Assembly: GCA_041667145.1 (NCBI GenBank)
Contig: JBAYFP010000001.1
Span: forward strand, 121,056-185,055
Source of the DNA: Minisyncoccota bacterium
GTDB lineage: Bacteria; Patescibacteriota; Minisyncoccia; Phycocordibacterales; UBA9973
DNA: 64,000 nt
Direction of reading: 5' to 3'
The notes under the pieces are model-generated. The model saw nothing but the letters and a program-made list of their open reading frames with translations, had not been told where the DNA came from and ran no database searches. Made by a program: the position numbers and the translations under genes. Positions 1-64,000 of the stretch are shown piece by piece; position 1 is the first letter of the stretch; each line of letters begins with the position of its first letter.

Positions 1-392
1 CTCTTTCTCAAAAATCAAATATCAGACAAGTGATTCCTATTTCTAAAAATAGTTTGAAGGAATTGATGGAAGAAATACACCTCTCCCCAACCCCTCTCCT
101 TAATAAGGAGAGGGGCGAAGGGGTGAGGTCTAAAATAGATTACCTGTTTGAAGGTGATCAAGAAGCATTGATAAAGTCACTTGCAGAAAAAATAACTAGA
201 ATGCAGATTTATCAAATGATTCTTGAGTCCAATGCTTCAGAACAATCTTCTCGAATGGTCGCAATGAAGAATGCTTCGGAGGCTGCAGGGGAAATGATAG
301 ATGATTTGACATTAGTATTCAATAAAGCTCGCCAAGGCAATATTACGAGAGAAATTTCGGAAATAAGTGCAGGCATGGCTTCGGTGAATTAA
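1..392 (+). CDS. atpG: F0F1 ATP synthase gamma subunit, C-terminal part (gene starts upstream of window)
   Basis: Frame is open to base 1. C-terminal motif ITREISEISAGMASV is typical of gamma, and the gene sits directly upstream of atpD and atpC. Contains an in-frame family-A palindromic insert (peptide HLSPTPLLNKERGEGVRS). Confidence 0.8.
   Translation, partial: LSQKSNIRQVIPISKNSLKELMEEIHLSPTPLLNKERGEGVRSKIDYLFEGDQEALIKSLAEKITRMQIYQMILESNASEQSSRMVAMKNASEAAGEMIDDLTLVFNKARQGNITREISEISAGMASVN
78..130. repeat. Family-A nested palindromic miniature repeat (core CCTCTCCTTAATAAGGAGAGG flanked by CACCCC/GGGGTG), in-frame inside atpG
   Basis: Read directly from sequence; near-identical copies at 2545-2598 (reverse orientation), 8901-8957 and 14366-14407. 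Confidence 0.8.
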
Positions 393-2234: not shown

Positions 2235-2957
2235 ATGAGTAAATTTTATGTAGTGGCGACGCCAATAGGTAATATGGGAGATATTACTCTCCGAGCCATT
2301 GAGACTCTAAAAGAGGTGGATTTAATATTGTGTGAGGATACTAGGGAAACAAGAAAAATCTTACAGAAATATAATATTAATACACCGACCATGAGCTATC
2401 ATACTCAAAGCAAGCTTGCTAAAGTAGATAAGATTTTTGAATTATTAGAAGAGGGGAAAAATCTAGCCTTAGTTTCTGATGCTGGCACACCGACTATTTC
2501 AGATCCAGGAGCAATGCTTATTTCTAAAATAAAAGAAAAATTTGACCTCACCCCTTCGCCCCTCTCCTTATTAAGGAGAGGGGTTGGGGGAGAGGTGGAT
2601 GTTCAGGTGATTCCAATCCCAGGCGCATCTGCTGTGATTGCTGCGCTTTCAGCTTCGGGATTGCCAACTCATGAATTTACTTTTCTTGGTTTTATGCCAC
2701 ACAAGAAAGGTAGAGAAACTCTTTTTAAGGAAATTGCTGAATCAAAGCGCACAATGATATTTTATGAATCTCCACATCGAATTTTAAAAACATTAGAATC
2801 TCTTGTAAAATTTTGCCCAAATAAAAAGGTCTGTATTGCTCGCGAGCTTACTAAAATTTATGAAGAAATTAAAACTGGCTCGCCATCTGAAATTTTAGAA
2901 TATCTCACTTCGAATCCCGTAAAACAAAAAGGGGAGTTTACGGTATTAGTCAGTTGA
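2235..2957 (+). CDS. rsmI: 16S rRNA (cytidine1402-2'-O)-methyltransferase RsmI (tetrapyrrole-methylase fold)
   Basis: N-terminus FYVVATPIGNMGDITLRAIETLKEVDLILCEDTRETRKIL is characteristic of RsmI. Contains a 53-bp in-frame family-A repeat (peptide DLTPSPLSLLRRGVGGEVD). Ends with TGA. Confidence 0.85.
   Translation: MSKFYVVATPIGNMGDITLRAIETLKEVDLILCEDTRETRKILQKYNINTPTMSYHTQSKLAKVDKIFELLEEGKNLALVSDAGTPTISDPGAMLISKIKEKFDLTPSPLSLLRRGVGGEVDVQVIPIPGASAVIAALSASGLPTHEFTFLGFMPHKKGRETLFKEIAESKRTMIFYESPHRILKTLESLVKFCPNKKVCIARELTKIYEEIKTGSPSEILEYLTSNPVKQKGEFTVLVS
2545..2598. repeat. Family-A palindromic repeat, reverse-complement orientation relative to the copy at 78-130, in-frame in rsmI
   Basis: Sequence gacctcaccccttcgcccctctccttattaaggagaggggttgggggagaggtgg is approximately the reverse complement of the 78-130 copy. 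Confidence 0.8.
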
Positions 2958-6362: not shown

Positions 6363-7136
6363 ATGAGCATTCTAGAAAATCTAGATAAAAATAATTTGCA
6401 CCATGCATATCTGATAGAAGGGGTTCGGGAAGAGATTGTGCCAGAGATTTTAGTACTTATGAAAAATCTTGGTATAGAAACTTCTAGCAATCCAGATTTT
6501 TGTCATATATCTGTAGATTCTTTTAAGATTGAAGATGCTCGTAATTTAAAATCAGTAGAATATGAAAAAGGTTTTTCAAATGGTAAAAAAATATTTTTAA
6601 TTTCTGCTAATAATTTTTTATTAGAAGCGCAAAATACATTACTTAAAATATTTGAAGAGCCGATAGAGAATACGCATTTCTTCTTGATTGTGCCAGATAA
6701 AAATATTTTACTTAAGACTTTAGTTTCTAGATTTTATTTGATTCCTACTAAACAAAATTTAGATGAAGGACTAAAAAAAGAAGCAGAGAAATTTATCAAA
6801 ATGCCTTTAAGAGATAGAATTGATTTTATTAAAGAATTATTAACAGAAGCAGAAGAAAATACGGAGGCCTTGCCTTCGCAAGGCGAAAGCAAGGCCTCCG
6901 CCAGATCCAAAGCATTGAAATTTTTAAATGCATTGGAAGCTATGTTGAATAGCAAATTTGTAAAGAATTTTTCCGGCTTAACCCTTCCCGGAGTACCGGG
7001 CGGGACCCACACCGTTCAAAATTCTTTACAAATTTGCTATCAACATATTTTTAAAGTTCGGGAGTTTTTAAATCAACCTGGTTCTTCGGTAAAGACTTTA
7101 ATGGAATCTGTGGCTTTGACTATTCCTAGTTTTTAA
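6363..7136 (+). CDS. holB: DNA polymerase III delta'-like clamp loader subunit
   Basis: HAYLIEG, NTLLKIFEEP...FFLI, SRF motifs resemble delta' (AAA+ without full Walker A). Carries two GC-rich in-frame palindromes. Confidence 0.55.
   Translation: MSILENLDKNNLHHAYLIEGVREEIVPEILVLMKNLGIETSSNPDFCHISVDSFKIEDARNLKSVEYEKGFSNGKKIFLISANNFLLEAQNTLLKIFEEPIENTHFFLIVPDKNILLKTLVSRFYLIPTKQNLDEGLKKEAEKFIKMPLRDRIDFIKELLTEAEENTEALPSQGESKASARSKALKFLNALEAMLNSKFVKNFSGLTLPGVPGGTHTVQNSLQICYQHIFKVREFLNQPGSSVKTLMESVALTIPSF
6862..6900. repeat. GC-rich nested palindrome inserted in-frame in holB-like gene
   Basis: cggaggccttgc-cttcgcaaggcgaaag-gcaaggcctccg: a perfect 12-bp inverted repeat around an inner palindrome, in a ~30% GC background. 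Confidence 0.7.
6983..7006. repeat. Second short GC-rich palindrome in holB-like gene (cccggagtaccggg)
   Basis: Read from sequence. Confidence 0.5.
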
Positions 7137-7724: not shown

Positions 7725-8900
7725 ATGAATATTATAATTTTTGTTGTAATTTTATTGATATTGGTTCTCGTTCATGAATGTGGGCATTTTTTTACTGCTA
7801 AGAAATTTGGTATTCGTGTAGATGAATTTGGCTTTGGTTTCCCTCCAAAATTATTTAGTTTTAAAAAAGGGGAGACAGAATATTCTATAAATGCTTTGCC
7901 TTTTGGAGGATTTGTTAAAATTTTTGGAGAAGATATGGATGAGGCAGATCTTTTAGAGGTTGGATTTTTAGATAAGAAACCTGCCCGCAATGCTGAAAGC
8001 ATAGCTTCTGCAGGCGGGGAAACTGTTGAAAAAGTTGATTTAGCTAGGAGTTTGGTAAGTAAACCTAAATATCAACAAGCAATGGTTATGTTTGCAGGTA
8101 TTTTTGCGAATTTTTTGCTAGCTTGGCTTTTATTTTCTGTGGGTTTTATCTCAGGGCTACCGACATCAGTAGGAAGTGAACCGAAAGGATATTCTGTGGC
8201 AGATGCGCATTTGGTTTTAGTTTCTGTTTTAGCTGGTTCGCCAGCAGAGATTTCAGGATTAAAGACTGGAGATAAAATAGTTTCCATAAAAAGTGGCAGT
8301 GATATTATTTCTGATATCAATCCTGATACATTAAAATCTTTTATACTCTCACATGGAGATAAGAAAATTGAATTTGGATATTTACGTGGAAAAAGTGAAA
8401 CGATAAACATCACAAATGTGACACCTATTAAAAAAACTGTTAATGAAAACCCCACTATTGGCATAGCTATGGACCAGATAGGAACCCTCAGATTGCCTAT
8501 TTTGAACGCTTTTTGGGAAGGGTTGAAGTTAGACTGGAATGTGACAAAAGGCACTGTAGTGGGCCTTTATACGCTTATATCAGGTGCTATACAAGGTAAA
8601 GGTAGCTTTTCTCAAGTTACAGGACCTGTAGGAATGGTAGGCATCGTAGGCGATGCATATCAATTTGGTTTTGTTTATCTTCTTTCTTTTATGGCATTGA
8701 TTTCAGTCAATTTAGCCATAATAAATCTTATTCCGTTTCCAGCACTCGATGGCGGAAGGATATTATTTTTACTTATTGAAAAAATAAAAGGTTCTCGCTT
8801 AAATCCTAAATTTGCAAATTATGCAAACATGATCGGTTTTGCTATTTTGATTTTATTGATGTTGGTTGTGACGTATCATGATGTAGTGAAATTGTTTTGA
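7725..8900 (+). CDS. rseP: RIP zinc metalloprotease RseP (site-2 protease family M50)
   Basis: HECGHF HExxH motif at the N-terminus, an internal PDZ domain, and C-terminal NLIPFPALDGGR; ends with TGA. Confidence 0.85.
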   Translation: MNIIIFVVILLILVLVHECGHFFTAKKFGIRVDEFGFGFPPKLFSFKKGETEYSINALPFGGFVKIFGEDMDEADLLEVGFLDKKPARNAESIASAGGETVEKVDLARSLVSKPKYQQAMVMFAGIFANFLLAWLLFSVGFISGLPTSVGSEPKGYSVADAHLVLVSVLAGSPAEISGLKTGDKIVSIKSGSDIISDINPDTLKSFILSHGDKKIEFGYLRGKSETINITNVTPIKKTVNENPTIGIAMDQIGTLRLPILNAFWEGLKLDWNVTKGTVVGLYTLISGAIQGKGSFSQVTGPVGMVGIVGDAYQFGFVYLLSFMALISVNLAIINLIPFPALDGGRILFLLIEKIKGSRLNPKFANYANMIGFAILILLMLVVTYHDVVKLF

Positions 8901-8957
8901 TCTCACCCCCAGCCCCTCTCCTTAATAAGGAGAGGGTGGCCGAAGGTCGGGTGAGGT
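8901..8957. repeat. Family-A palindromic repeat, intergenic (immediately after rseP stop)
   Basis: tctcacccccagcccctctccttaataaggagagggtggccgaaggtcgggtgagg. Confidence 0.8.
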
Positions 8958-9155: not shown

Positions 9156-10679
9156 ATGTTTTCTTCTTATTCATCAAAAAAAGATTATAAAATTTTCTGT
9201 AGAGAATGTTGGCTTTCAGATAATTTAGATCCTCTTTTATATGGACAAGACTATGATTTTTCCAAACCATTTTTTGAACAATTTAAAGAACTTTCAGAAA
9301 AAATACCCCATCTAAATCTTTTTCAGATTAATACAAAAAATTCTGATTATGCCAATGCAGTTAGAGATAGTAAAAATATCTATCTTTCATATTCTGTAGT
9401 AGATGGAGAAGACGTTTTTTATTCTAAAGACATTGATCGTTCTAGGCAAATTTATGATAGTATCACGACGACTGATTCTGAGAAATCAGCTTTTCTTGTT
9501 TATTGTGTAAATGATTACAATGTTATCTATTCAGTAATGACTATGGATTGTTTTGATTCTTCTTTTCTTTTTGATTGCCGAAATTGTTCTAATTGTTTTA
9601 TGTCTACTAATTTAAGGAACCAGCAATACGTATATAAGAATCATAAGTATAGCAAAGAAGAATATTTTTCTATAATTAATCAGATTGATACAGGTAGTCA
9701 CGAGGAGTTTAAAAAATTGGTGACAGAGTTTGAAGAAATGAAATGTAAGGCTATTCATAAGTATTCTCATGTTGGTAAATCCGTTATCAATTCTACGGGG
9801 GATGCTATAAGTAATACTAGAAATTCAAAAGAATGCTTTAACGCATATAACACAGAAAATGTGAAATGGGTTTATAGAGGTTTTGATTTAAAAGATTCCT
9901 ATGATTGCAATCATGGTGGGCTTATGTCTGAGCTAGTATATGAATTTATATCTGGAGGGAAAGAAGAATATAAGACATATTTTACTGCTTCTGCTATGAA
10001 TCCATTACGGGACACTTATTATACTGCTTGGTCTACAGGTTCAAAATTATTTGGTTGTTTTGGTATTAAAGGTGATAGTTATTGTATCTTAAATAAAAAA
10101 TATACCAAAGAAGAATATGAAGAATTAATACCAAAAGTAATTAAACATATGAATGATATGCCTTATGTGAATGATAAGGGAAGAGTGTATAGATTTGGTG
10201 AGTTCTTTCCTTTTGAACTTTCTCCTTATGCATACAATGAATCTGTCGCTCAAGAATTTTTTCCGTTATCATCTGAAGAGATAGTAAATAAAGGTTATAC
10301 ATATTATGAAAATGAAAAGAATAAATATGAAATTACTAAAAAGCCTGAAGACTTGCCAGATAATATATCTGAAGTTAATGAAGATATATTAAAAGAAGTC
10401 ATTGAATGTGAACATAAAGGAGAATGTTTGCATCAATGTACTACTGCTTTTAAAATACACCCTGAAGAGTTTTCTTTTTATCGTAATCACAAACTCCCAA
10501 TTCCACATTTATGTCCCAATTGTCGTTTTTATGAAAGATTAAAATATCGTAACCCTTGGAAACTTTGGCATAGAAAATGCATGAAGGAAGGGTGTACTAA
10601 TGAATTTGAGACTCCTTATGCTCCAGATAGACCTGAAACAATCTATTGTGAACGTTGTTATCAGCGTGAAGTATACTAG
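9156..10679 (+). CDS. Cys-rich multi-zinc-ribbon protein of unknown function (paralog of 62517..64000). Likely true start at 8964, with an in-frame TGA at 9102-9104.
   Basis: ORF-track ORF of 507 aa. Many CxxC pairs. C-terminal block HKGECLHQCT...LPIPHLCPNCRFYERLKYRNPWKLWHRKC...PDRPETIYCERCYQREV is shared with the gene at the other end of the window. Confidence 0.7.
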   Translation: MFSSYSSKKDYKIFCRECWLSDNLDPLLYGQDYDFSKPFFEQFKELSEKIPHLNLFQINTKNSDYANAVRDSKNIYLSYSVVDGEDVFYSKDIDRSRQIYDSITTTDSEKSAFLVYCVNDYNVIYSVMTMDCFDSSFLFDCRNCSNCFMSTNLRNQQYVYKNHKYSKEEYFSIINQIDTGSHEEFKKLVTEFEEMKCKAIHKYSHVGKSVINSTGDAISNTRNSKECFNAYNTENVKWVYRGFDLKDSYDCNHGGLMSELVYEFISGGKEEYKTYFTASAMNPLRDTYYTAWSTGSKLFGCFGIKGDSYCILNKKYTKEEYEELIPKVIKHMNDMPYVNDKGRVYRFGEFFPFELSPYAYNESVAQEFFPLSSEEIVNKGYTYYENEKNKYEITKKPEDLPDNISEVNEDILKEVIECEHKGECLHQCTTAFKIHPEEFSFYRNHKLPIPHLCPNCRFYERLKYRNPWKLWHRKCMKEGCTNEFETPYAPDRPETIYCERCYQREVY

Positions 10680-10762
10680 AGACGTTGGACATCTGGGAGT
10701 ACCCAGGTGTACAACGTCTGAGTTTCTTGACGTTGTACGTCTTCCTGAGACGTCCAACGTCT
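10679..10762. repeat. Family-C nested palindromic repeat (AGACGTTGGAC...GTCCAACGTCT), abutting the stop codon of the Cys-rich gene
   Basis: 84 bp; outer 11-bp inverted repeat plus inner GTACAACGTCTGAG / GACGTTGTAC palindromes; nearly identical copy in reverse orientation at 49434-49516. Confidence 0.85.
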
Positions 10763-14365: not shown

Positions 14366-14407
14366 TCACCTCACCCCGACCCTCTCCTTAACAAGGAGAG
14401 GGGGAAT
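14366..14407. repeat. Family-A palindromic repeat (shorter copy), intergenic after alr
   Basis: tcacctcaccccgaccctctccttaacaaggagagggggaatt. Confidence 0.7.
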
Positions 14408-14853: not shown

Positions 14854-15105
14854 ATGGAAAATAAATTTATTTCAATAAAAGAAGCTGCAGAAATGCTTCA
14901 TGTGTCAAAATTAACTCTACGTAATTGGGATAGAGATGGAAAATTGTTTGCTTTGAGGCATCCTATCAATAATTACAGGGTTTATCACATAGAAGACATA
15001 AATAGAATTATTAAGCAGATTGAGTCTGGAGAAAAACCAACTAGAATGCCTCGAAAGGATAAACGCAAGAAATATATTGTACCGATAATTCATCTCAAAG
15101 ATTAA
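14854..15105 (+). CDS. MerR/excisionase(Xis)-family helix-turn-helix DNA-binding protein
   Basis: ISIKEAAEMLHVSKLTLRNWDRDGKL...YRVYHIEDINRII matches the MerR-type HTH signature; located 100 nt downstream of the tRNA. Confidence 0.6.
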   Translation: MENKFISIKEAAEMLHVSKLTLRNWDRDGKLFALRHPINNYRVYHIEDINRIIKQIESGEKPTRMPRKDKRKKYIVPIIHLKD

Positions 15106-15162
15106 CTAAAAACTATTTTTATAAAACTAAAAAATTATCCACAGTTTTAAGGGTTTTTTCAT

Positions 15163-15196: not shown

Positions 15197-18100
15197 ATGA
15201 AATTTACTGTTTTTTCTCGTAAAAAAATTCCACACAAAGTTGGAGGCTTTTCTCGTGTTATAAGACTGAAAATTAAATTAAGATTTGAAAAATTAAGAAA
15301 GAAAAAATTTGAAGAATCTATAGTGAGAATAATAAAAGAAAAAATGTTAATGAGAAAAGAAGAAATTAAGAAAATGATTAAAATAATAAAAGAAAACATA
15401 ATGCCGAAAAAAATGATAAACACAAAAAACATTTTAGTTTCTTTTTTTATTTTTTCTTTTTCTTTTTCTTTTTTATATAATCCAAATCAGGTTTTAGCTG
15501 TAGCGCCTACAGTAAATATTACATATAGTTCGAACCCAGTTAAAGCAGGGACACAGAGAATCTCAGTTACATATTCTTCTCAGCCTGCAAGTACTCCTAC
15601 CATTGGTATTAATCAACTAGGAACTACAGATATTCCAAATGGTACAGCTATGGTTCCTCCTTATAGTGATATCAATGCTCCTGGAGTCACTTGGTCAAAT
15701 CCTTTATCATCTAACATAGGATCTGCAGGTGGTTATTGGAATTCTATTGCCTATGGTAATGATATATTTGTAGCTGTTTCGAATTATGGATCAGGTAATA
15801 AAGTAGCAACATCTTCTGATTATGGTGTTACTTGGATTCCTAGGACACCTGCAGAGAGTAACAATTGGGAATCTGTTACTTTTGGCAATGGTATTTTTGT
15901 CGCAGTTTCAAGTAATGGTAATCATAGAGTTATGACCTCAGATAACGGAATTAATTGGTTTCCTCAAAATGTTACGGAAGATTATGACTGGCAATCTGTT
16001 ACTTATGATAATGATCATGGAGTTTTTGTAGCTGTTGCTGATTCTGGTACACATAGAGCAATGACTTCGTCAGATGGTATTATTTGGGAATATAAAACAA
16101 CAGGTTCATATTCTTGGAATTCTGTTGCTTATGGTAACGGAGTTTTTGTAGCTGTTGGTAATCTTGGTAAAATACAAAAATCAACAAACAGCGGTGATAC
16201 ATGGAATGATCCTCAAATAAATAGTAATTCGGCATATTTATATTCTGTTGCTTATGGTAACGGAGTATTTGTTGCAGTCGGGGCTAGTGGTACTATAAGA
16301 ACTTCTTCAGATTTTGGTGATACTTGGCAAGAGCAAACTTCAGGAACTGGTTTAACTATTTCAGATGTGACTTTTGGTAATAATACTTTTGTTGCAGTTA
16401 CTAATTCTAGTGCTAATTTGTTTTTAACTTCACCTGATGGTTTACATTGGACAAGTAGAACAGCTACAGCCGGTGCTACATCTATTGCTTATGGTACTCC
16501 TACTATCAGTGGTGTTGAGACCTCTATGTTTGTAGCAGTTGAGCGTACGAGCTCTCTTGGTACTAATTTAATTACTTCTACAAGTAGAAAATTAAGTTTT
16601 GATGCTGCTCATACATATTATTATGATTATACAGTTTGCGCTGCTGGTAATAGTGGCACTGGTGCTTGCGAGGGTAATTATGTAGATGGTACAGCGACAG
16701 TCACCTTATCAGATGTAAAAGATCTATATGGTGTTTCATATACCCCAAGTGGTACTACATTTACGATTGATACTACCGAAAGTGCTCCCGGTACTCCTGA
16801 TATGACAGCAGGGACAGATACTGGTTCCTCTAGCACAGATAATACTACTTCTGACACGACTCCTGATTTTACTATTTCTTGTGATACTGGAGCTACTGTC
16901 ACTTTATATAAGGATACAACTTCTTCAGTTGGTACGGGAACATGTTCTTCTTCAACGGTTACAATAACTTCATCAACTCTTTCAGCTGGTACTTATGCAA
17001 TGAACGCTAAACAAACTGATGCAGCGGGTAATACTTCGAGTGCATCAGGAAATCTTTCAGTTACGATTGACACAACTGCGCCTAGCGTCAGTACTGTTAC
17101 TTACTCTAGATCTAGTATAAAACAAAATGATACATTAACTATTACAGTTAATTTTAATGAAGCTTTAGCAATTACTAATCCTCCACAAATTGCGATTTCA
17201 GGAGTTAATAATCTTACAGCTACAAATATGACAGAAGGATATGAGACTTGTGATCGTCATCCATGTGCACAAGTGCTGAGTCCTTCAAGGTGGACTTATG
17301 ATTTTTCTATACAGTCAGGAAATGGTTCACCGACTGTTACTATAAGTGCAGGTCAAGATGCAGCAGGAAATATTATGACAAATGCCTCTTCTCCTACTAG
17401 TTTTTCTAGTTTTACAGTAGACAATATTGCTCCAACAAATCAAAATACTGTTTTTCCAACCTCAATTTCAAAAAAGAGTAGCGTGACAGTGACATCACCA
17501 AATATTGTTTCTGCAGGAGAAACAGGTGGTTCAATTTGGTTTGCTCCATCGGGAACAACTACATTTACAGCTGGTGCAACTATGACTACAGCAGGAGGGA
17601 CAGCCACAACTATTTTAGCTCCACTTACTGCAGGATCATATAAATTATTTGTCCGTGATGCAGCCGGAAATACATCTTTAGCCTCGACTGCGATTTTGAC
17701 TGTCGATAATACTGCACCGACTGTTGCCTTATCATATACCTCCGATCCAATTAAGGCGGGGACACAAACTATTACAGCTACATATTCTAAAGCGATTACA
17801 AGTATTCCAAACATTAGAGTTGATCAATATGGGACTGTGCCAGATGATCTTCTTTTTCATCCAATGACCAATAATGATAGTGGAGTTAATAAAGTTTGGA
17901 AATATGATTATACAGTTCATGCAGCTACTGATTCATGTCCACAAGGGGGAACTCCTCCTTGTTATGCAGATGGTACAGCTCAAGTATCTTTATCATCTAC
18001 CACAGATGTAGCGGGAAATACTTCTGGTACTCCTAGTAGTTCTACATTCATAATTGACACCGCAGCACCTACAAATTCTATCAGTGCTCCATCAGTTTCT

Positions 18101-21100
18101 TCTACTTCAATTGGTCCTGTAACATATACTGTTTCTTACTCAGGAGCAAATACTGTTTCACTTGCTAATGAGAATATAACTTTAATCAAAACAGGAACAG
18201 CTGATGGAACAGTCGCTGTTTCAGGTACTGGTATATCTTCTCGAACAGTGACTATTTCTTCTATCACTGGTACTGGCACTTTAGGAATTTCTATTGCTGC
18301 TGGTACTGCTTCTGATACTGCGGGAAATACTTCTCTAGCTATGGGAGCGTCTACTACTTTTGATGTAAGTAATGTTCCTTTAACAGTTGCAAGTATTTCT
18401 GTAGATTTAGCCTCAGGTTCATATAAATCTGGTCAAGCAATAATAACAACAGTAACTTTCTCTAAAGATGTTACATCGACTGGGAATGCAACTGTGACAT
18501 TTGATACGGGAGGGACATGTACTTTTACTATTAGTAATGCTTCATCAGGAAGTTGTACTTATACTGTCGGGGCTGGACAAAATTCTAGTGTTTTAGCTGT
18601 CTCGTCTGTTACGGGGACTATAAAAGATGCTGCCTTAAATTTATTGACTGCAACTACTCCTGTGATGAATATTTCTCCAACAAAAACAATTGTGATTGAT
18701 ACCACAGCACCAATTCTTTCCTTCACTGATGATGTAGCTGTTGGTCCTACATCTTCTGATACAATCACTGCTTCTTGGGTTGGTACTACTACTGGACAAA
18801 AAAAATGGATGTATGATACGGATAGAATTTGTTCACCTACTTCAACTGATTACACAATGACAGATAGTGATTCAATGGATCAAATTACAACCACAAACAA
18901 TACAAAATTTATTTGTTTGTATGGAGCAGATCTTGCTGGAAATTATTCAACACTAGCTTCAACAAATGATATAAATATTGATGCTAGTGGACCGACTGTC
19001 AGTATTTCTTCTCCCACTTCAAGCCCTACAAACGAAACAATAACTGTTAATGTTTTGTTTGATAAATCTGTTTCTGATTTTATTTATTCTGATATTTCAG
19101 TTACAAATGGTACAGTTTCATCTGCATCTTTTTCTGGCTCAGGAATGACTTATTCTTTTATAGTTACACCAACAGCTAATGGAGTAGTTGGTATAAGTAT
19201 TGGTTCAGGGGTGGCACATGATACAGCAGGAAATACAAACTCTGCTTCTAACTCTATATCCATAACATATAGTAATATAGGGCCGACAGTTATTTTAAGT
19301 TCCCCGTCACCTTATTATATTAATGGCTCATTCGATGTCGTTGCCACCTTTAGTGAACCTGTGACTGGGTTTACTTCAGCGGATATTACTATAAATGGTG
19401 GTATAGGTAATAGTTACGTAGACGGTTGGGCTGATGATGGTACAACGTATGAATTTTCTATTGTTCCAGATGGAGGAGGAATTGTTACTGTTGATATTAA
19501 TGGTGGAGTTGCTGTAAATGCAGCCCAAAATGGGAATATCGCTGCTACACAACTTTCTAGATTAAATGATACTGCTCCGCCTACTGCATATGATATCCCA
19601 ACAATTTGTTCTGTTGAAGGAAATTTATGTACTACCGCAGGTCAAAATGCCGATCCACAGGAAGTATATGATGTCGGTATGAGTACTATTTCTAGTACTG
19701 CCGAAGATGGTGATTCAGGAATAAGTAATGTTCAAATTTCAATTAATGATACTACTGCCAATAAATGGTATAACGGTACAATATTTACAACATCTGGTAG
19801 TGAAATATTATTAAATACAGTATTTGCATATTCAGAGAACGACGGGCAAACTCACTGGAGTTATGATTTTTCTAGCGTACCTTTAATTACTGGGGATACG
19901 TATACGATTAAAGTTACTGTTACAGATGGAGTATCTAATACAAATACTGCATCAGAATCTTTTAAATTTATAAATTCTGCACCAGAAGTTTCGAATGTAG
20001 TTCCATTGGAAGATGCGACTGGTTTAGTGACAGTGCATTATGATGTTACAGATAATGAATCTTCTCAAACTACGAATTATTTATTTTACAGTGTAGGAGG
20101 AAATGGTGTAGACGCAGGTTTAGCTAGTGACGCAACAAGTCTTAATTTATCTGACGCTACTTATTTCCCAAATTCAGGAATTATTCTTATAGATAATGAG
20201 ATGATTTCTTATACAAGTAAATCAGGAGCTACTCTTTTAGGTCTCACCAGAGGGATATTAAATACGATACCAGTTGCTCATGAAGATAGTGCTACTGTAT
20301 ATATAAAAGCAAGTTCAGCTACAGGTGGCGGAATTGGATTATCTGATGTTGGTACAAATAAGACTATAACTTGGCAAGCATCTTCTGATGCAAATGGATA
20401 TGAATATGATGTATCTTTTATTAAAGTTGTTGCAAATGATGGAGGAGTTGCCAATATGGTAGGTTCAGCAACTAACGAGGAAGGATTTATTCTTGATGCA
20501 AAAGCACCTACTGCAACAGTCACATTTGACGCTGGTGTCGGGGGAGAAACAAATAGTGGAGTAATTACTATTCCGATGCCTGAAGATATATCAGCTGTTG
20601 AGTATAAGATTACAGATGTAAATAATTTGTCAACAAATGCAGATTCTGGTGTTTGGAAATCTATAACGACTAGTACAACTTTACCTTGGACTTTTGATTC
20701 TAATATCATAGCAAGAAGTTTGAAATATCAGTTTAGAGATGCATACGGAAATATTGGATCTGAAATTACTACCTCTACCCAAGATCCGATTCCTACTAAG
20801 TTATTTACTGTCACTGATACATCGAATGTTTCATCAACACCTGCTTATCATCAAATGCATATGGATTGGCAGGCAGTGAGTTCTAGTGGGTTTTCTTCTT
20901 ATAAATTAGAATATAAAACATCTAGAAATAATATTAATTACATTGGTAATGGTTACACATCTATCTCTAGTACAGCTCTCAACAATGTTAGTACTGATAG
21001 TTATGATGATAAAAGTTTAACGCCAGATAATTTTTATAAATATCGTATAGGGATAATCGGTACTAATGGTAATGTTTCTATGAGATCAGATACTATTCTC

Positions 21101-25963: not shown

Positions 25964-27172
25964 ATGTTTAATAAACAATTAAAATTTCATGAGCTAGTGA
26001 CGCTTTCTCTTAGGTCTTTCCGTACTAAACCGCAGAGAGCTTTTTTAACTATTATTGGCATGTCTATTGGTATTGCTGCAGTGTTATTGTTGGTTTCTCT
26101 CGGGTATGGACTCCAATATATATTGATTGGTAAATTAATGACGACTGAAGATTCATTGATAACAATGGAAATATCATATCCGACTGAAAGTAATATGTTA
26201 ATCAAAAAATCTGTTTTAGATAATTTAAAAACTTATCCAGATATTGCTGAAGTGAGCCCAATCGCTGAATTTCCAGGTGAAATTAGTACCCCTGGTACCT
26301 CAAGCCTTTTAATTAATACACTTATCGTTGATCCTGCTTATTTTAGACTTACTGGATTAACACCCAATATTGGAAAAACTATAGGAGAAGGTACAGGTGT
26401 GGTGGTTTCAAATCAAACGTTAACAGCGTTGGGTCTAGTAGCAGATCAGGTATCTTTAAATAAAATATTTGATCTAAAAGTTTCTTATCCTAGTGAAGAT
26501 ATAAACTTTACTGAAAAAATAATCTCCTCTATACCAGTTCCGCTTAAAGGGATTATAGTAGACGATACTATGGCTCCGACTGCCATAGTATATGCAGATG
26601 CATTTTCTGAAACACCCCCGTCTTATCGTAGGGCACTCGTTAAGGCAAAAAATGTAGATATATTAGAAAGTCTTCGTGATAAATTGATTAGTGAAGGATT
26701 TTTAGTGTCAGCACGTATTGATCTAGTTACTCAAGCTCGTAAAATTACGAATATTATTACTATGATATTAGGAGTTTTTGGTGTGACAGCACTTGTCGTT
26801 TCAGCAATTGGAATGTTCAATACTATGCTTGTAGGTTTTCTGGAACGTATTTATGAAGTTGGAATTTTGAAATCCTTAGGTGCTACAGATTATGATGTAC
26901 GTAATCTTTTCTTAGTGGAAGCTTCGTTTATGGGTTTCCTTGGTGGATTGGGTGGTATCATCATAGGTATTGGTGGAGGTAAGATTCTCAATCTTTTGCT
27001 GAGTCTTTTATCGACAAGATTTGGTGGAAATGCCATAGAACTTTTTATAATTCCTTGGTGGTTTGTTTTTCTTATTTTAGTTGTTTCAGTGATAATAGGT
27101 TTCTTTTCTGGCTGGTGGCCAGCACATCGGGCAGCGGGTCTTTCTCCTAAGGAAGCTTTTACAAAGAGATAA
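25964..27172 (+). CDS. ABC transporter permease, FtsX/MacB family
   Basis: N-terminal TM helix, large extracytoplasmic domain, C-terminal FtsX-like 3-TM bundle (ILKSLGATDYDVRNLFLVEASFMGFLGG). Confidence 0.8.
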   Translation: MFNKQLKFHELVTLSLRSFRTKPQRAFLTIIGMSIGIAAVLLLVSLGYGLQYILIGKLMTTEDSLITMEISYPTESNMLIKKSVLDNLKTYPDIAEVSPIAEFPGEISTPGTSSLLINTLIVDPAYFRLTGLTPNIGKTIGEGTGVVVSNQTLTALGLVADQVSLNKIFDLKVSYPSEDINFTEKIISSIPVPLKGIIVDDTMAPTAIVYADAFSETPPSYRRALVKAKNVDILESLRDKLISEGFLVSARIDLVTQARKITNIITMILGVFGVTALVVSAIGMFNTMLVGFLERIYEVGILKSLGATDYDVRNLFLVEASFMGFLGGLGGIIIGIGGGKILNLLLSLLSTRFGGNAIELFIIPWWFVFLILVVSVIIGFFSGWWPAHRAAGLSPKEAFTKR

Positions 27173-28019
27173 TTTTATTTAGATTAATTTTTTTGGATGC
27201 GTCAAACCATTTTATTTCTTTGTCTCGTTTAAACCAAGTCATTTGTCTTTTTGTATATTTTATAGTTTCTTTTACTACTTTTTCATAAGTAGGGGAGTCG
27301 TATTCAAAACCTAATTCTTTTAATCTTTTTTGAGATATTCCAGATTTTTTTAGTTTTTTTATTTCATTTAATAGTCCCACTTTAAACATTTCTTTAACTC
27401 TTTTTTCTATTCTATTTTTTAATTTATCTTGTGGTAGATACAAGCCAATCTTAATAAACTTATACGGAGGCGTTGCCTCCGTGGTTCGGGGAGTTTTACC
27501 TATAGATTTTGCTATTTCGATTGCTCTGATTAGTCTTACTTTATTATTTAGTTCGTTTTTTACTTTGATATCCTTTGCTCTATTTTTATCAAGTTTTTTT
27601 AATATTTTAAAAAGTTCCAGTACTGATTTTTTTTCAAGAAATTTTCTTAGTTTTTGATTTGGTAAAACTTCAGGGAAAATTATTCCTTTTGTCACAGCAT
27701 CAATATAAAATCCAGTACCTCCACAAATTATTGGAATTTTACCTCTTTTTACTATCTCAGCTATAGCGTAGATAGCTTTTTTTTGATATTTAACAACTGT
27801 AAATTTATTTTTTGGATTTTCTACATCAAGTAGATGATGAGGAATACCTTGCATTTCTTTTATTGTAATTTTACCAGTTCCTATATTTAAGCTTTTATAA
27901 ACTTGCCTAGAATCAGCAGAAATGATTTCGCCGTCAATTTTTTGGGCAATTTTAACAGCTAAATCACTCTTTCCAGTGGCTGTGGGTCCTAATATGACAA
28001 TAATCTTAGATTTTTGCAT
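27159..28019 (-). CDS. miaA: tRNA dimethylallyltransferase
   Basis: GPTATGKS P-loop, ISADSRQVYK, LDIGTGK-like motif. Confidence 0.9.
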   Translation of the reverse strand: MQKSKIIVILGPTATGKSDLAVKIAQKIDGEIISADSRQVYKSLNIGTGKITIKEMQGIPHHLLDVENPKNKFTVVKYQKKAIYAIAEIVKRGKIPIICGGTGFYIDAVTKGIIFPEVLPNQKLRKFLEKKSVLELFKILKKLDKNRAKDIKVKNELNNKVRLIRAIEIAKSIGKTPRTTEATPPYKFIKIGLYLPQDKLKNRIEKRVKEMFKVGLLNEIKKLKKSGISQKRLKELGFEYDSPTYEKVVKETIKYTKRQMTWFKRDKEIKWFDASKKINLNKIISL

Positions 28020-32023: not shown

Positions 32024-34324
32024 TTATTTTATTTTATTTAGTTTGTCAGGACGATTATTGGGACATTTATTATTACTACATCTTTCAGGAATTGTTTTTG
32101 TACCTTCCATCATCAAGGAACCACATTTATCACAAATTTTACCTGTAGGTTTTGCTTTGATAGCAAATTTACAATCAGGATAATTTGAGCAGGAATAAAA
32201 TATGCCAAATCTTCCACGTCTTTCAGAGATATCTCCTTTTTTACATAGAGGACAAATCACACCAGTTCTTTTTCTCGCTTCTTCTGCCTCATCTTTCTTT
32301 ATGAATTTACACTTCGGATAACGTGAACAGGAGATAAAAGTACCTGTACCGTCACGTCTTTGTTTGATTATAAGTTTTCCACCACCAGATTTTCCCTTTT
32401 TTTCTCCACATTCTGGACACATTTCGCCAGTTTCCTTTGGGCCTTCAAGTTCTGTGCCGTCTAATCTTAATGCTCCATCGCAATCAGGATATTTAGAACA
32501 GGAATAAAATTTACCTCCACGGGAAAGCTTGATGATCATACTACTACCACATTTAGGACATTTAATATTTTCTGGTGCGTCACCTAAATTTGTTGCTTTT
32601 TCTAATTTTTCTTTTATTTTTACTTCTTTTGAAAAAGGACCATAAAAATCTTTAAGAGTTTTTTCATATTCACGTTCTCCTCTAGAAATTTGATCAAGTT
32701 CATCTTCCATCTCTGCGGTAAAAGTATCAGAAATATAATTTGCAAAGTTTTTTTCCAAGAAATCAGATACGACTTCACCGACGTCGGTGGGAAAGAGAGT
32801 CTTATTTTCCTTTCTTACATATTCTCTATCCTCCAAGGTTTTCATTATAGATGCGTAGGTGGAAGGTCGGCCTATGTCTCTTGATTCAAGTTCTTTAATC
32901 AATCCAGCTTCACTATATCTATTTGGTGGTTCAGTAAATTTTTCTTCTTTAATAAGATTTAATAATTTTAATTTTTCTCCTTCTTTTACTTCGGGTAATT
33001 CGATATCTTCTCCAACACTATCTTTATCTACTAGAAGCCAACCAGTAAATAAAATTCTTGAGCCAGTAGCAGAGAAATCAGGGAATTTGAACTCCTGAGA
33101 CGTTGGACGTCTGGATTCTGTATCGGCTTCCAGACGTCCAACGTCTGGGGTTATGTTTGCACTTATTTTCGTCTTTAATAATTTTGCATCAGACATTTGT
33201 GAAGATACTGTACGTTCCCAAATTAATCTATAAAGTCTTTGCTGCTCCTCTGTCCCAGCTTGAAGATTTTCTATATGGGTAGGACGAATAGCCTCATGTG
33301 CCTCCTGAGCATTTTTTGATTTAGTTTTATAAATTCTAGCTTGTGCATACTTACTACCATATTTTTTTTCTACAAGAGAAACTATTTGAGCTTGAGCGAC
33401 AGCAGATAAATTTGTACTATCTGTTCGCATATATGTGATGTGTCCTGCTTCGTATAGTTTCTGCGCTATTTGCATAGTTCTTGAAGGGGAGTAGCCAAGT
33501 CGTGAGCTTGCTGTTTGTTGTAATGTAGAAGTAGTGAAAGGTGCACGAGGAACTCTTTTTTGTTCTGATTCTTTTACTTCTTTCACTATCCAATCTTCTT
33601 TTTTACCCAATTCGAGAATTTTTTCAACTAATTTTTCATCTCTTGGTTCTTCTACACAAACAAGAGTAATTTTTTCCCCTCCTGCCTGAGGAGGGGTGCC
33701 TTTTAAGGCGGGGTGGTGGGAGGTTTCAAAAAGTCCTAAAAGTTTCCAATATTTTTCAGGAATAAATGCACGAATTTCTCGTTCACGTTCCATTATGATA
33801 CGAAGCGCAGGGGATTGAACTCTTCCAGCTGAAAGTCCATAACGTACTTTTTTCCAAATAAGACCTGAAAGATCATATCCTACGAGTCTATCGAGTACTC
33901 GTCTTGCTTCTTGGGCTTTTCTTAGGTTTGTATCTATATCACGAGGGTGCTTTAAAGCTTCTTCCACAGCGTCTTTAGTAATTTCATAAAAAACTACCCT
34001 TTTTATAGGGGCTTTTATTCTTTTGCTTTTCTTTAATAATTCTTCAATATGCCAAGCGATAGCTTCTCCTTCACGATCAGGGTCTGTTGCTAAAAGTATT
34101 TCATTTGCTTTTTCTCCGAGAGATTGAAGTTCATGGACAACTTTTTCTTTACCTTTAGAAATTTCGTAATGTGGTATAAATCCACCTTCTATATCGATAG
34201 CTATTTTATTTGATTTTGGTAAATCACGAATATGTCCAATAGAAGCACGTACTGTGTACGCACCTTCTAAATATTTTTCAATAGTCTTTGCTTTTGATGG
34301 TGATTCTACAATTAAAAGTTTCAT
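32024..34324 (-). CDS. topA: DNA topoisomerase I with C-terminal zinc ribbons
   Basis: TOPRIM N-terminus LLIVESPSKAKTI, active-site region, 3-4 C4 zinc ribbons. Contains two in-frame GC-rich palindromic insertions. Confidence 0.9.
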   Translation of the reverse strand: MKLLIVESPSKAKTIEKYLEGAYTVRASIGHIRDLPKSNKIAIDIEGGFIPHYEISKGKEKVVHELQSLGEKANEILLATDPDREGEAIAWHIEELLKKSKRIKAPIKRVVFYEITKDAVEEALKHPRDIDTNLRKAQEARRVLDRLVGYDLSGLIWKKVRYGLSAGRVQSPALRIIMEREREIRAFIPEKYWKLLGLFETSHHPALKGTPPQAGGEKITLVCVEEPRDEKLVEKILELGKKEDWIVKEVKESEQKRVPRAPFTTSTLQQTASSRLGYSPSRTMQIAQKLYEAGHITYMRTDSTNLSAVAQAQIVSLVEKKYGSKYAQARIYKTKSKNAQEAHEAIRPTHIENLQAGTEEQQRLYRLIWERTVSSQMSDAKLLKTKISANITPDVGRLEADTESRRPTSQEFKFPDFSATGSRILFTGWLLVDKDSVGEDIELPEVKEGEKLKLLNLIKEEKFTEPPNRYSEAGLIKELESRDIGRPSTYASIMKTLEDREYVRKENKTLFPTDVGEVVSDFLEKNFANYISDTFTAEMEDELDQISRGEREYEKTLKDFYGPFSKEVKIKEKLEKATNLGDAPENIKCPKCGSSMIIKLSRGGKFYSCSKYPDCDGALRLDGTELEGPKETGEMCPECGEKKGKSGGGKLIIKQRRDGTGTFISCSRYPKCKFIKKDEAEEARKRTGVICPLCKKGDISERRGRFGIFYSCSNYPDCKFAIKAKPTGKICDKCGSLMMEGTKTIPERCSNNKCPNNRPDKLNKIK
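33096..33148. repeat. Family-C palindromic repeat inserted in-frame in topA (encodes DVGRLEADTESRRPTSQ)
   Basis: cctgagacgttggacgtctgg-attctgtatcggctt-ccagacgtccaacgtctgg: 17-bp perfect inverted repeat. Confidence 0.85.
33681..33703. repeat. Short GC-rich palindrome cccctcctgcctgaggagggg in-frame in topA (encodes ...TPPQAGGE...)
   Basis: Read from sequence. Confidence 0.6.
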
Positions 34325-55346: not shown

Positions 55347-55430
55347 CTTGAGCAAAGCGATTAGAAAATTTTCACCCTGTTAAATAAAGAAGAATTTAAC
55401 AGGGTATTAAAAATATACTTGCTTTGCTCG
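55347..55430 (-). promoter_or_regulatory. Nested stem-loop structure in the 5' leader of rpmA (possible ribosomal-protein autoregulatory leader or attenuator)
   Basis: Outer stem GAGCAAAGC/GCTTTGCTC enclosing inner stem CCCTGTTAAA/TTTAACAGGG, ending 14 nt before the rpmA start. Confidence 0.3.
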
Positions 55431-55464: not shown

Positions 55465-55848
55465 ATGGAAAAAATCAAGCTCACAATAATGAATTTTATA
55501 GAAAGCGATAAGGGTAAGGACATAATGGTAGTAATTATCATAATTTTGGTAGGTTTAGGCTCATTTGGACTAGGTAGACTATCAAAAGATAGCTCAAATG
55601 AAGGCATAAAAATCGATTATGGAAATCAAGAGGCTAATGCTATAAGTTCACTAAATCAAAATACAAATACTTCACAAAATACTCAGAAATCAATTTCAGG
55701 AAATTTCTTTGCCTCAAGCAAGGGAAGTAAATATTATTCTACTAGCTGTAACGCAGGAAAAACTATTAAACAAGAAAACAGAGTCTACTTTGATACATCA
55801 GAAGAGGCAGAAAGTGCAGGATTTGAGCTTTCTAGTTCATGCCGATAA
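55465..55848 (+). CDS. membrane-anchored protein with a C-terminal Ada-like zinc-binding domain
   Basis: C-terminus KYYSTSCNAGKTIKQENRVYFDTSEEAESAGFELSSSC resembles the Ada N-terminal metal-binding motif (YH.C......N...F.S..EA..AGF.PC..C); N-terminal TM helix. Confidence 0.45.
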   Translation: MEKIKLTIMNFIESDKGKDIMVVIIIILVGLGSFGLGRLSKDSSNEGIKIDYGNQEANAISSLNQNTNTSQNTQKSISGNFFASSKGSKYYSTSCNAGKTIKQENRVYFDTSEEAESAGFELSSSCR

Positions 55849-62431: not shown

Positions 62432-62472
62432 ATGTAGATTATATCAAATATAATGGATTTTTCCCAGACCTA

Positions 62473-62513
62473 CCTAGACGTTGTACGTCTTCCTGAGACG
62501 TCCAACGTCTAGG
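62473..62513. repeat. Family-C palindromic repeat (short copy), abutting the 3' end of the second Cys-rich paralog
   Basis: cctagacgttgtacgtcttcctgagacgtccaacgtctagg matches the 3' half of the 10679-10762 copy. Confidence 0.8.
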
Positions 62514-62516
62514 TAT

Positions 62517-64000
62517 CTATGATACTTCTGCTTGATAACACTCTTTACAATAAATAATTTCTGGTCTATCTGGGGAATACGAGGTCTTAAATTCAACAGC
62601 ACATTCACCATTACCATGGGAATGAACTGCTGTATTTTCATACAACCCATTTCTTGATTTGTTACCAATACAATCACATTTACGACTCCATAACTGCACC
62701 GGATTACGTTCTTCTAATCTTATATGATAACGACAATTAGGACAAAATCTTGGAAGTGGTAAATTCATTTGTTTATAAAATTGAATTTCTTTAGGAATTA
62801 TTCTGAATACTTCAGTACATTGATGATTACATTCTCCTTTATGCCCACATTCAATAACATCCTCAGTTATAGTTTCTTCTACCTCATTAATATGATCAGG
62901 CAAATCCGCTGTATATTTTGTGATTTTATAATTTCTTGTTTCAGAGTCTTTCCAAGAATAACCTTTTTTTACAGCATCTTCTTTGTGAAGTGGAAAATGA
63001 TCCTGAGCTATACTTTCATTATAAGCAAAAGGAGAAATTTCGGGTGGAAAAAATTCACCATATTTATAAATACGTCCCTTTTTATCTTTAAACGGTAATG
63101 CATCCATCTGTTCAATAATCTTAGATTTCAAAATCTCATATTCTTCTTTTGAGTAACTCTTGTTTAAAATGCAATATTTTTTATCCTTTAAACAAACTGA
63201 CCCAAAAATATCTGAAGAAGATACACATAAATCCGAATAAGTGACATTATTTGTATACCAACAGGTAGTAGAAAAAAGTTTAAGAAAATTTTGTTCAATA
63301 TTTGCACTTTCATATATCAGTTCAGCATTATCAGCAAAATTAAAATCGTGACTATCCTTTACGTTCGAACAAAAATATGCATATTTTAGATTCTCCGAAT
63401 TTCTTACATAAAAACTATTATGGCAATTCCTTGTTTCAAACAACTCGTTACCGTCTGAATTTATACAAAGGACATTGTTGGCAAAACGATGTGGTACTCT
63501 AGTGTATAGATCTAAGAAATTTTCCTTGAGTTTTTTTAATTCAGGATAAGAACCAATTTTTTCTTTAAGAGAAACAAATTCTTCTTTAGATATTTTTTTA
63601 TTAAGCAAAAAATTACTTTTATTAAAAAGATTAATACATCCTAAACATTCTAATACATTTTTACAATTTTTTATGTATACACTATCTATCGAATTCATAG
63701 AGTTATCAGCAAAACCAACCCTATAATTTTTTGTACCTTGATTGGTTTCATAACAAAATTCTGAATCAACTACTCCAAAACAATCAAAAGACTCTTTAGT
63801 ACGAAAAGTGCGATCACAATATGCACAATTTTCACAGGTATCTGAACAATTGACTAAATAACAATTCTTATGATTAGCAGAATAATTCACATAAGGTGAA
63901 TTTACATTATTATTACCTATTAATGCTGGCCTAGGGACTGTTTCTAAAAGTTTTTTAAATTGTGAAAAAAATGGTACAGAAAAATCAAAATCTAAACCAT
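62517..64000 (-). CDS. Cys-rich multi-zinc-ribbon protein, paralog of 9156..10679; 5' end runs off the window
   Basis: Upstream of the track start (GTG at 63888-63890) the frame stays open to base 64000, and its translation (...LDFDFSVPFFSQFKKLLETVP...) aligns with QDYDFSKPFFEQFKELSEKIP of the first paralog. C-terminal PDRPEIIYCKECYQAEV matches PDRPETIYCERCYQREV. Confidence 0.7.
   Translation of the reverse strand, partial: GLDFDFSVPFFSQFKKLLETVPRPALIGNNNVNSPYVNYSANHKNCYLVNCSDTCENCAYCDRTFRTKESFDCFGVVDSEFCYETNQGTKNYRVGFADNSMNSIDSVYIKNCKNVLECLGCINLFNKSNFLLNKKISKEEFVSLKEKIGSYPELKKLKENFLDLYTRVPHRFANNVLCINSDGNELFETRNCHNSFYVRNSENLKYAYFCSNVKDSHDFNFADNAELIYESANIEQNFLKLFSTTCWYTNNVTYSDLCVSSSDIFGSVCLKDKKYCILNKSYSKEEYEILKSKIIEQMDALPFKDKKGRIYKYGEFFPPEISPFAYNESIAQDHFPLHKEDAVKKGYSWKDSETRNYKITKYTADLPDHINEVEETITEDVIECGHKGECNHQCTEVFRIIPKEIQFYKQMNLPLPRFCPNCRYHIRLEERNPVQLWSRKCDCIGNKSRNGLYENTAVHSHGNGECAVEFKTSYSPDRPEIIYCKECYQAEVS

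Follow-up and report, generated by a model that had tools for sequence, protein, structure and literature searches.

In-frame GC-rich palindromes in holB and topA of a Minisyncoccota bacterium: probable copies of dispersed hairpin-forming repeats

Two housekeeping genes in a 64,000-nucleotide stretch of a Minisyncoccota genome (contig JBAYFP010000001.1, positions 121,056 to 185,055; hereafter the window, with a GC content of ~33%) carry GC-rich palindromes that are translated as part of the protein: a holB-like gene and topA. The explanation we favour, with moderate confidence, is that these segments are copies of several families of selfish, hairpin-forming, GC-rich repeats (~20-100 nt) that have spread within and between AT-rich genomes of the Nomurabacteria/Paceibacterota type in the candidate phyla radiation (CPR). 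In sequence comparisons, different genomes carry the same segments in frame in housekeeping genes that are unrelated to one another; the segments are present in some orthologs and absent from others, and recur at a few hotspots. In addition, the aligned copies fit a palindromic symmetry that is maintained at the DNA level, with occasional inversion of the loop. The holB DNA was compared over 80 species-level loci (labels L...), in which both element sites were read, the holB proteins over the 120 closest (labels P...) and topA over 120 orthologs, and 1.38 Mb of DNA from related genomes was sampled for repeats. The original prediction, made from the window alone, had placed two GC-rich palindromes in the holB-like gene; both are present, at 6862-6900 and 6987-7000, and encode the peptides it quoted. 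The features of this gene are as follows.

6363..7136, + strand: holB-like gene (DNA polymerase III delta' / clamp-loader subunit), 257 aa, Pfam PF13177 DNA_pol3_delta2, E 2.4e-18; host of two elements
6862..6900, + strand: element 1 (holB site 1), GC-rich palindrome with 18-nt arms, 1 mismatch and a 3-nt loop; encodes EALPSQGESKASA
6941..7047, + strand: element 2 (holB site 2), whole nested hairpin of ~107 nt, with a 30-bp outer stem, one bulge and a GC-rich core
6949..6971, + strand: left AT-rich arm of element 2, perfect over 23 nt; encodes SKFVKNF and covaries with the right arm
6972..7017, + strand: type A GC-rich core of element 2, 46 nt; encodes SGLTLPGVPGGTHTVQ
7018..7040, + strand: right AT-rich arm of element 2, perfect over 23 nt; encodes QNSLQIC and covaries with the left arm

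Judged by sequence, the closest relatives of the holB-like protein are from Nomurabacteria-type CPR genomes. A Candidatus Paceibacterota metagenome-assembled genome (MAG) encodes a protein 100% identical to it, and the gene order priA-like / mreB / holB / frr / rseP is kept in relatives. In the AlphaFold2 model, the confidence score (predicted local distance difference test, pLDDT) is below 50 at residues 164-177 (element 1) and 201-216 (type A core) only, both of which lie between helices, and the two inserts are predicted to occupy the sole two low-confidence loops of the protein. The arms of element 2 form the ends of helices in the same model, with the left arm ending helix 180-203 and the right arm starting helix 214-236.

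The original prediction placed the holB palindromes in neither of two repeat families. Element 1 and the topA segment are not orphans, however: each belongs to a family dispersed among different genes of related genomes. The perfect 12-nt inverted repeat of element 1 (CGGAGGCCTTGC, 6862-6873, and GCAAGGCCTCCG, 6889-6900) widens to 18-nt arms with 94% complementarity, and the element is palindromic end to end. The RNA fold of 6850-6912 has a free energy of -32.3 kcal/mol (z = -7.0), and none of 200 shuffles was equally stable. Holding site 1 of holB in L083 is the same element, and in L084 a variant of it; further family copies lie in frame in atpG (L024, L027, L043, L085, L087, L088), atpD (L059), gapA (L089) and another gene (L086), giving five host genes in total. 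The copies outside holB are 85-88% identical across 40 nt, the one in L086 has an inverted centre, and the family consensus is 'ACGGARGC-CTTGCYTYCGC-AAG-RCGRAAGCAAG-GCYTCCGT'. All copies read (E)ALLPQGGSKASA, i.e. (E)ALLPQ(G/D)GSKASA, or its mirror EALLPPCGSKASA. Compensatory changes separate the atpG copies of L027 and L043, and AT-enriched relics at the atpG site in L023, L034 and L055 look, from their sequence, like old decaying copies. In the window, element 1 replaces the usual EEEDEEGNEIxxLDST linker of holB with almost no change in length (29 vs 28 aa). Both element 1 and the PTEVG family have the layout X-loop-X' X-loop-X', which can be folded as two hairpins or as one long one. The window holds one related single hairpin only.

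27464..27482, - strand: miaA hairpin ACGGAGGC-gtt-GCCTCCGT, in the open reading frame (ORF) 27159..28019 (-); peptide TEATPP; its stem is the outer stem of element 1

The ends of the L083 copy of element 1, TACGGAGGC...CCTCCGTA, are this same miaA stem. The miaA hairpin is found at the same site in L009, L023, L034 and L035, and its stem changes are compensatory (TACGGCGGAGGC vs TAGGGCGGAGGC, each perfect). Carriage by phages received no support from IMG/VR, which gave 0 matches to the element 1 pattern, and concatenated EALLPQGGSKASA variants found nothing at E <= 10 in a set of 5.8 billion proteins. Separately, another double-hairpin family, TCCCGAC-cgaa-GTCGGGA TCCCGAC-aggg-GTCGGGA (peptide VPTEVGIPTGVGK), fills the holB site 1 linker in L014, L017, L027 and L028, with an additional palindrome nested inside it in L028; this family also occurs at L017:3056-3094 and L043:6620-6655.

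The second host gene, topA, carries two inserts.

32024..34324, - strand: topA (DNA topoisomerase I), Pfam Toprim, Topoisom_bac and Zn_ribbon_Top1; host of two inserts
33676..33721, - strand: topA insert of 46 nt (12 aa, peptide SHHPALKGTPPQAGG), with an 8-bp hairpin at 33676-33696
33098..33146, - strand: second topA insert, a AGACGTTGGACGTCT-type palindrome with 18-nt perfect arms; peptide VGRLEADTESRRPTSQEF

The predicted topA palindrome, CCCCTCCT-gcctg-AGGAGGGG, does encode TPPQAGGE in frame on the minus strand, but it lies at 33676-33696, 5-7 nt away from the predicted 33681-33703. The hairpin is structurally weak (8-bp stem; z = -0.8 for the surrounding 81 nt). The segment matches the left ~48 nt of a family whose members span ~95 nt (LPPPRLSGTPPQAGGE-DNPPRLxKEGxGGG), with in-frame copies in atpD (L061, L070, L017) and atpG (L073), i.e. 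three host genes including topA, and the reading GTPPQAGGE is common to the topA, atpD and atpG copies. Just 2 of 120 orthologs share the insert (P0136, P0220); most have none, including one that is 86% identical, while four of the 120 have a different palindrome in the same place and a few have other inserts. The second topA insert is likewise missing from the 86%-identical ortholog L106. As for the databases, many topA entries are marked 'partial', and topA is split into two called genes by a TAA at a conserved Tyr codon in L108 (L108:501-1340) and by a 1-nt frameshift in L106 (L106:501-1820), both probably assembly errors. That the segments are in-frame insertions, as predicted, is borne out to the extent that they are extra relative to most orthologs for topA and replace a linker at holB site 1; element 2 may have been either gained or lost.

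The second predicted holB palindrome ('cccggagtaccggg', CCCGGAGTACCGGG at 6987-7000) was under-described, being only the inner tip of element 2, a nested hairpin of ~107 nt with perfect 23-nt arms. Its type A core forms an inner hairpin, CCC-tt-CCCGG-agta-CCGGG-c-GGG (6983-7004), and the RNA fold of 6941-7047 reaches -50.9 kcal/mol (z = -10.3). The type A core is present in 17 of the 80 holB loci and in most of the 120 closest proteins, and about a third of the close orthologs aligned have no such core. A type B core (SGLLQPSAGTFPVQ) has the same termini with a different, UUCG-type central hairpin. In other species this site shows partial deletions (L007, L015, P0053) or arms that abut with no core between them (L018, P0062), or it is occupied by another palindrome, TGTCAAAGACNGTCTTTGACA = MSKTVFD, at times in tandem. 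On a tree of holB these states are intermixed, and close relatives differ strongly in sequence. A perfect inverted repeat of at least 10 nt is found at site 2 in 42% of 79 species vs 1.3% of control windows in the same genes.

The cores of element 2 occur in both orientations. The exact reverse complement of type A, between the same arms and in frame, is found in L070 and L069 (DNA) and in P0099 and P0101 (peptide), where it gives SEWCGSHPVLREGLSQK; that of type B is found in L053, L026 and L023 (DNA; P0105 is the L023 protein) and in P0073 (peptide), where it gives FERGRFHPKDGVIRK. At least four lineages have a reverse-complement core, and the peptide it encodes is unrelated to the forward one. 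The nearest neighbours of the inverted lineages (70-86% identity) have a forward core or another site-2 sequence; P0073 is the exception, its top matches being tied at 0.74 with the inverted P0099 among them. Since the inverted lineages, P0073 excepted, are not each other's nearest relatives, inversion of the core must have occurred several times. Small hairpin-loop inversions of chloroplast DNA, which are non-coding, and intragenic invertons, which are switched within populations by site-specific recombinases and usually have spacers of > 100 bp, offer a comparison. As in those systems, a segment between inverted repeats is present in both orientations in related taxa, repeatedly and independent of phylogeny; and, as in intragenic invertons, the type A and type B cores are in-gene segments with inverted-repeat flanks for which both orientations keep the frame and recode the protein. 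Unlike in invertons, the spacer here is 40-46 nt, the differences are between species, and no recombinase was recognised in the window. Rapid phase variation found no support: no close pair with opposite orientation was found, the nearest neighbours of opposite core orientation being 70-82% identical in holB.

Conservation within element 2 is at the level of nucleotides. Among the 17 type A genomes, core identity at codon positions 1/2/3 is 0.82/0.89/0.81, compared with 0.71/0.83/0.49 for the N-terminal 160 codons of holB and 0.45-0.49 at third positions elsewhere in the gene. This third-position conservation, together with the unrelated inverted peptide, excludes protein-level selection on the core peptide. 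The nucleotide-level conservation, the gaps among close orthologs and the two orientations mean that the type A segment acts as an element and not as an ancestral protein motif. The arms behave differently from the core: they vary by species yet stay Watson-Crick complementary, with 22 of 30 arm pairs changed on both sides over 28 species. Their covariation score is 0.309 vs 0.134 in shuffles (none of 500 reaches 0.309) and 0.065-0.113 in slid controls. Of the 588 cells of the central stem, 532 are Watson-Crick, leaving 8 G·T, 24 A·C and 24 other cells; the mRNA strand thus shows no enrichment of wobble pairs. Because the covariation is Watson-Crick and G·T is rarer than A·C, it points to a DNA-level copying process and not to selection for a helix in the sense RNA. 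In two genomes (L029:9808-9880, L019:~15070-15140), the intergenic DNA directly upstream of miaA contains a type-B-like core as well, with its own, differing perfect AT-rich arms (AAAATGGTTTATAATTT / AAATTATAAACCATTTT). On this sequence comparison, the cores are family-specific and the arms locus-specific; since the arms differ among loci and species, they are not terminal inverted repeats carried by the element as in a MITE. Sixteen IMG/VR pattern matches to the type A core were dismissed as chance, 15 being in one phage gene with unrelated flanks and 1 unrelated. Before the comparisons were made, conservation of the segments in orthologs, with palindromes no better than chance, had been named as what would speak against the prediction; site 2 is conserved in many orthologs, but at the nucleotide level, and the folds at the two sites have z-scores of -7.0 and -10.3.

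The holB and topA segments are part of a wider pattern. The window contains 11 perfect GC-rich hairpins with stems of >= 7 vs 0-6 (mean 2.4) in 10 shuffles, and 7 of these lie within long ORFs (atpG, ORF 2235..2957, holB, miaA, topA (x2) and a 2956-aa ORF). With the loop-less 14-nt palindrome at 32776-32789 in topA as an eighth in-ORF case, the predicted count of at least six in four genes holds. The 1.38 Mb sample yields 280 perfect GC-rich hairpins in 165 clusters, many of them common to several genomes. ORFs contain 75% of these hairpins but 94.6% of the bases, which means that the hairpins, though mostly genic, are relatively depleted from genes; intergenic enrichment is ~5-fold. Several protein sites have been hit repeatedly by different families: in atpD the loop that follows EAIDD, in atpG the linker preceding YLFEGD, in topA the loop behind FET, and in holB both loops.

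Other palindromes in the window include a family, CCCCTCTCCTTA-n-TAAGGAGAGGGG, with four copies. Two are intergenic and directly follow stop codons (8914-8936 and 14380-14402); the others are in frame.

91..115, + strand: CCCCTCTCCTTA-a-TAAGGAGAGGGG palindrome at the atpG hotspot, in frame; peptide SPTPLLNKERGEGV
2559..2583, + strand: second in-frame copy of the CCCCTCTCCTTA family, in ORF 2235..2957

The rseP-like ORF 7725..8900 (M50 protease) has a GC-rich stretch at 7985-8020, CCTGCCCGCAATGCTGAAAGCATAGCTTCTGCAGGCGGG (peptide PARNAESIASAGG), which looks like a decayed palindromic insert, and the 2956-aa protein is encoded by a single ORF at 15197-24067 (+) with one GC-rich hairpin. Two paralogous Cys-rich proteins, at 9156-10679 (+, 507 aa) and 62517-63890 (-, 457 aa), share 40% identity (E 3e-107) and have no Pfam, NCBIfam or PDB relative. 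AGACGTTGGACGTCT-type palindromes at 10680-10719 and 62471-62515 follow their stop codons within 1-2 nt and could be terminators or part of a gene-plus-hairpin unit. An AT-rich inverted repeat of another kind, with 36-nt arms (75% complementary) and an 8-nt spacer, occupies 55350-55429, intergenic and ahead of ORF 55465..55848.

How might such repeats spread and persist? An enzyme that acts in trans and recognises hairpins, or template switching during replication or repair, could copy them to new sites, and copies in genes would survive only where they are in frame and in tolerant loops. Resident copies may stay palindromic through template switching within the hairpin or gene conversion. The same maintenance process could occasionally flip the loop and extend the palindrome into flanking host sequence, and could make hairpin tips favoured spots for further insertion, which would give nested palindromes, while AT-biased mutation would decay older copies. 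The holB type A cassette would be an extreme case, in which species-specific AT-rich coding arms give the helices of a helix-loop-helix and the GC-rich core gives the loop. The original prediction of a general mechanism involving several families agrees with the finding of unrelated families across housekeeping genes and genomes. Its 'palindrome invasion' fits the dispersal; its 'hairpin-mediated insertion' is something that we infer.

Several observations weigh against such mobile repeats. Pfam identified no transposase or recombinase in the 10 unannotated ORFs of the window, and its other ORFs look like housekeeping genes. There is no clear target-site duplication, and comparisons of filled and empty sites fit insertion and deletion between short repeats alike; for holB and topA, setting filled against empty sites leaves room for a short AATT/AATTCT repeat, but this is not diagnostic of target duplication because the site itself is palindromic. 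Selection alone is enough to explain the frame bias, which comes from ~5 independent sites, and nested insertion and outward palindrome growth are inferred from the anatomy of the elements. An exact-pattern scan for element 1 in 241 million metagenome records gave only 5 matches, and copy numbers therefore look low. Finally, the type A core was not found outside holB in the 1.38 Mb sampled. It may be a long-established cassette tied to its locus and not a mobile one, and function instead of recent spread could explain why its nucleotides are so strongly conserved.

A bolder version of the mobile-repeat explanation, which we put forward tentatively and think unlikely to be right in full, is that the palindromes are a hitherto undescribed, hairpin-targeting mobile DNA of CPR bacteria, inserting at the tips of existing hairpins, translated in every case and recoding proteins that are essential. 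In holB, the cassette would be a flip-flop whose 46-nt core switches between two orientations and so specifies two clamp-loader isoforms. The driver would be a new enzyme, with the Cys-rich paralogues abutting palindromes as candidates, or a replication-coupled mechanism peculiar to repair-poor genomes.

Among the alternatives, the one that survives best, although we consider it doubtful, is that the site-2 hairpin of holB, and perhaps others, is a selected structure. This could be a site for RNase III, other processing or regulation in an mreB-holB-frr-rseP transcript; at the DNA level, it could be a cruciform or a site bound by protein. Such a function would account for the very stable fold (z = -10.3), for a core conserved at all codon positions, for the strong covariation of the arms and for the similar core-plus-arms element upstream of miaA in two genomes. 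It would also fit the presence of some palindrome at this site in 42-52% of 79 species vs 1-9% of control windows. However, the strictly Watson-Crick covariation, with fewer G·T (8) than A·C (24) pairs on the mRNA strand, is not the signature of a sense-RNA helix, and for this reason a selected mRNA helix is not favoured. Moreover, any sequence-specific RNA motif would be lost with the core in both orientations, about half of the species have no significant palindrome at the site, and close relatives are quite different in sequence. No Rfam family matches either: the whole window gave only 3 tRNAs at the gathering threshold, and a permissive scan limited to 6800-7100 gave nothing beyond generic miRNA-hairpin models, far under threshold.

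It is less probable still that each palindrome originated on the spot, independently of the others and without movement between sites, through replication template switching at a quasi-palindrome, and that the similarity between genes is convergent. The locus-specific, perfectly symmetric arms, the nested palindromes, the replacement of ancestral codons by element 1 at near-equal length and the failure to find a transposase in the unannotated ORFs are all in keeping with this. Against it, stretches of 40-48 nt at 85-95% identity recur in unrelated genes of different genomes, and such convergence is not credible; local template switching may well account for the maintenance and growth of palindromes, but not for their origin. 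Ordinary lineage-specific protein loops under protein-level selection that are palindromic by chance, or assembly artefacts, are very improbable: the segments are in frame, stop-free and in loops, and MAG assemblies do contain errors (e.g. L106, L108), but the fold z-scores of -7 and -10, the third-position conservation and a reverse-complement core giving an unrelated peptide in several lineages contradict the former, and identical elements at the same sites in independent assemblies of different projects led us to reject the latter.

The dispersed repeats favoured here resemble several known systems without belonging to any. Rickettsia palindromic elements (RPEs; Ogata et al. 2000, as summarised in PMC10969869) are palindromic families of ~100-150 bp found in frame in unrelated housekeeping genes. 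As far as that summary goes, the likeness extends to the presence of several families in the reduced, AT-rich genome of a host-dependent bacterium, to one conserved peptide per family, to fold-tolerant sites and to the lack of a known transposase. The traits by which RPEs are recognised are seen here in the form of EALLPQGGSKASA in all copies of the element 1 family, dispersal of that family over unrelated loci and, in the predicted structure, fold-compatible positions for both holB inserts. Most units here are, however, 20-50 nt (the largest ~95-107 nt), GC-rich and often perfect palindromes, in another phylum. With most lengths below the RPE range, we regard the CPR elements as an analogue of RPEs and not as members. 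We know of no description of hotspot reuse by different families, nesting, loop inversion or locus-specific arms for RPEs.

Double-hairpin elements are also a feature of Allomyces mitochondrial DNA (mtDNA), where they are mainly non-coding. Sponge mtDNA has repetitive hairpin-forming elements (PMC2800124). The X-loop-X' X-loop-X' layout of element 1 and the PTEVG family, and multiple invasions by unrelated hairpin families, are shared with these Allomyces and sponge elements, the latter as far as that source describes them; those elements are mitochondrial and mainly non-coding, whereas the ones described here are bacterial and translated. Yeast mitochondrial GC clusters are short, GC-rich and palindromic, reside in a very AT-rich genome, are regarded as mobile and include optional in-frame inserts in the protein gene var1; they also merge, shuffle and act as recombination hotspots (PMC8811140). 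They differ in being organellar and mostly intergenic, compared with 75% of CPR hairpins inside ORFs, and in having terminal AG/TAG repeats taken as target duplications (PMC8811140), none of which are seen in the CPR elements. The 'byps' of Magnusiomyces capitatus mitochondria, as cited in PMC8811140, are GC-cluster-like hairpin inserts within essential protein genes of an AT-rich genome that break the frame and are skipped by translational bypassing. Every CPR copy examined is, in contrast, a multiple of 3 nt with an open frame and no stop codons; ordinary translation therefore suffices, and bypassing was rejected. RAYT transposases mobilise REP/BIME repeats, which by definition are extragenic and which have GTAG or CGTC tags (PMC3733652). 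Like the CPR repeats, REPs are 20-40 bp palindromes in many copies, and the AGACGTTGGACGTCT family of the window contains a CGTC motif; element 1, the type A core and the topA element are unlike them in being intragenic and without a terminal GTAG/CGTC tag, and Pfam searches of the 10 unannotated window ORFs showed no RAYT. In the literature on CPR, Patescibacteria, Nomurabacteria and Parcubacteria, we found no prior description of in-frame or RPE-like palindromic elements. The most unusual part is the invertible, nucleotide-conserved core between covarying coding arms.

In-frame palindromic repeats have so far been a curiosity of Rickettsia and fungal mitochondria. In CPR bacteria, whose genomes are tiny and have few repair genes and few classical transposons, the same behaviour would make such repeats a recurrent outcome of reductive, AT-biased genome evolution. 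Hundreds of sequenced species would provide a test system for dating gain, loss, decay and inversion. The repeats also have practical consequences, as they inflate apparent protein divergence and create 'lineage-specific insertions' in the marker genes used for CPR phylogeny. In the holB cassette, maintenance of a palindrome at the DNA level can dictate the amino acids of two helices in an essential protein, which makes it a clear example from nature of a protein constrained by the symmetry of a nucleic acid.

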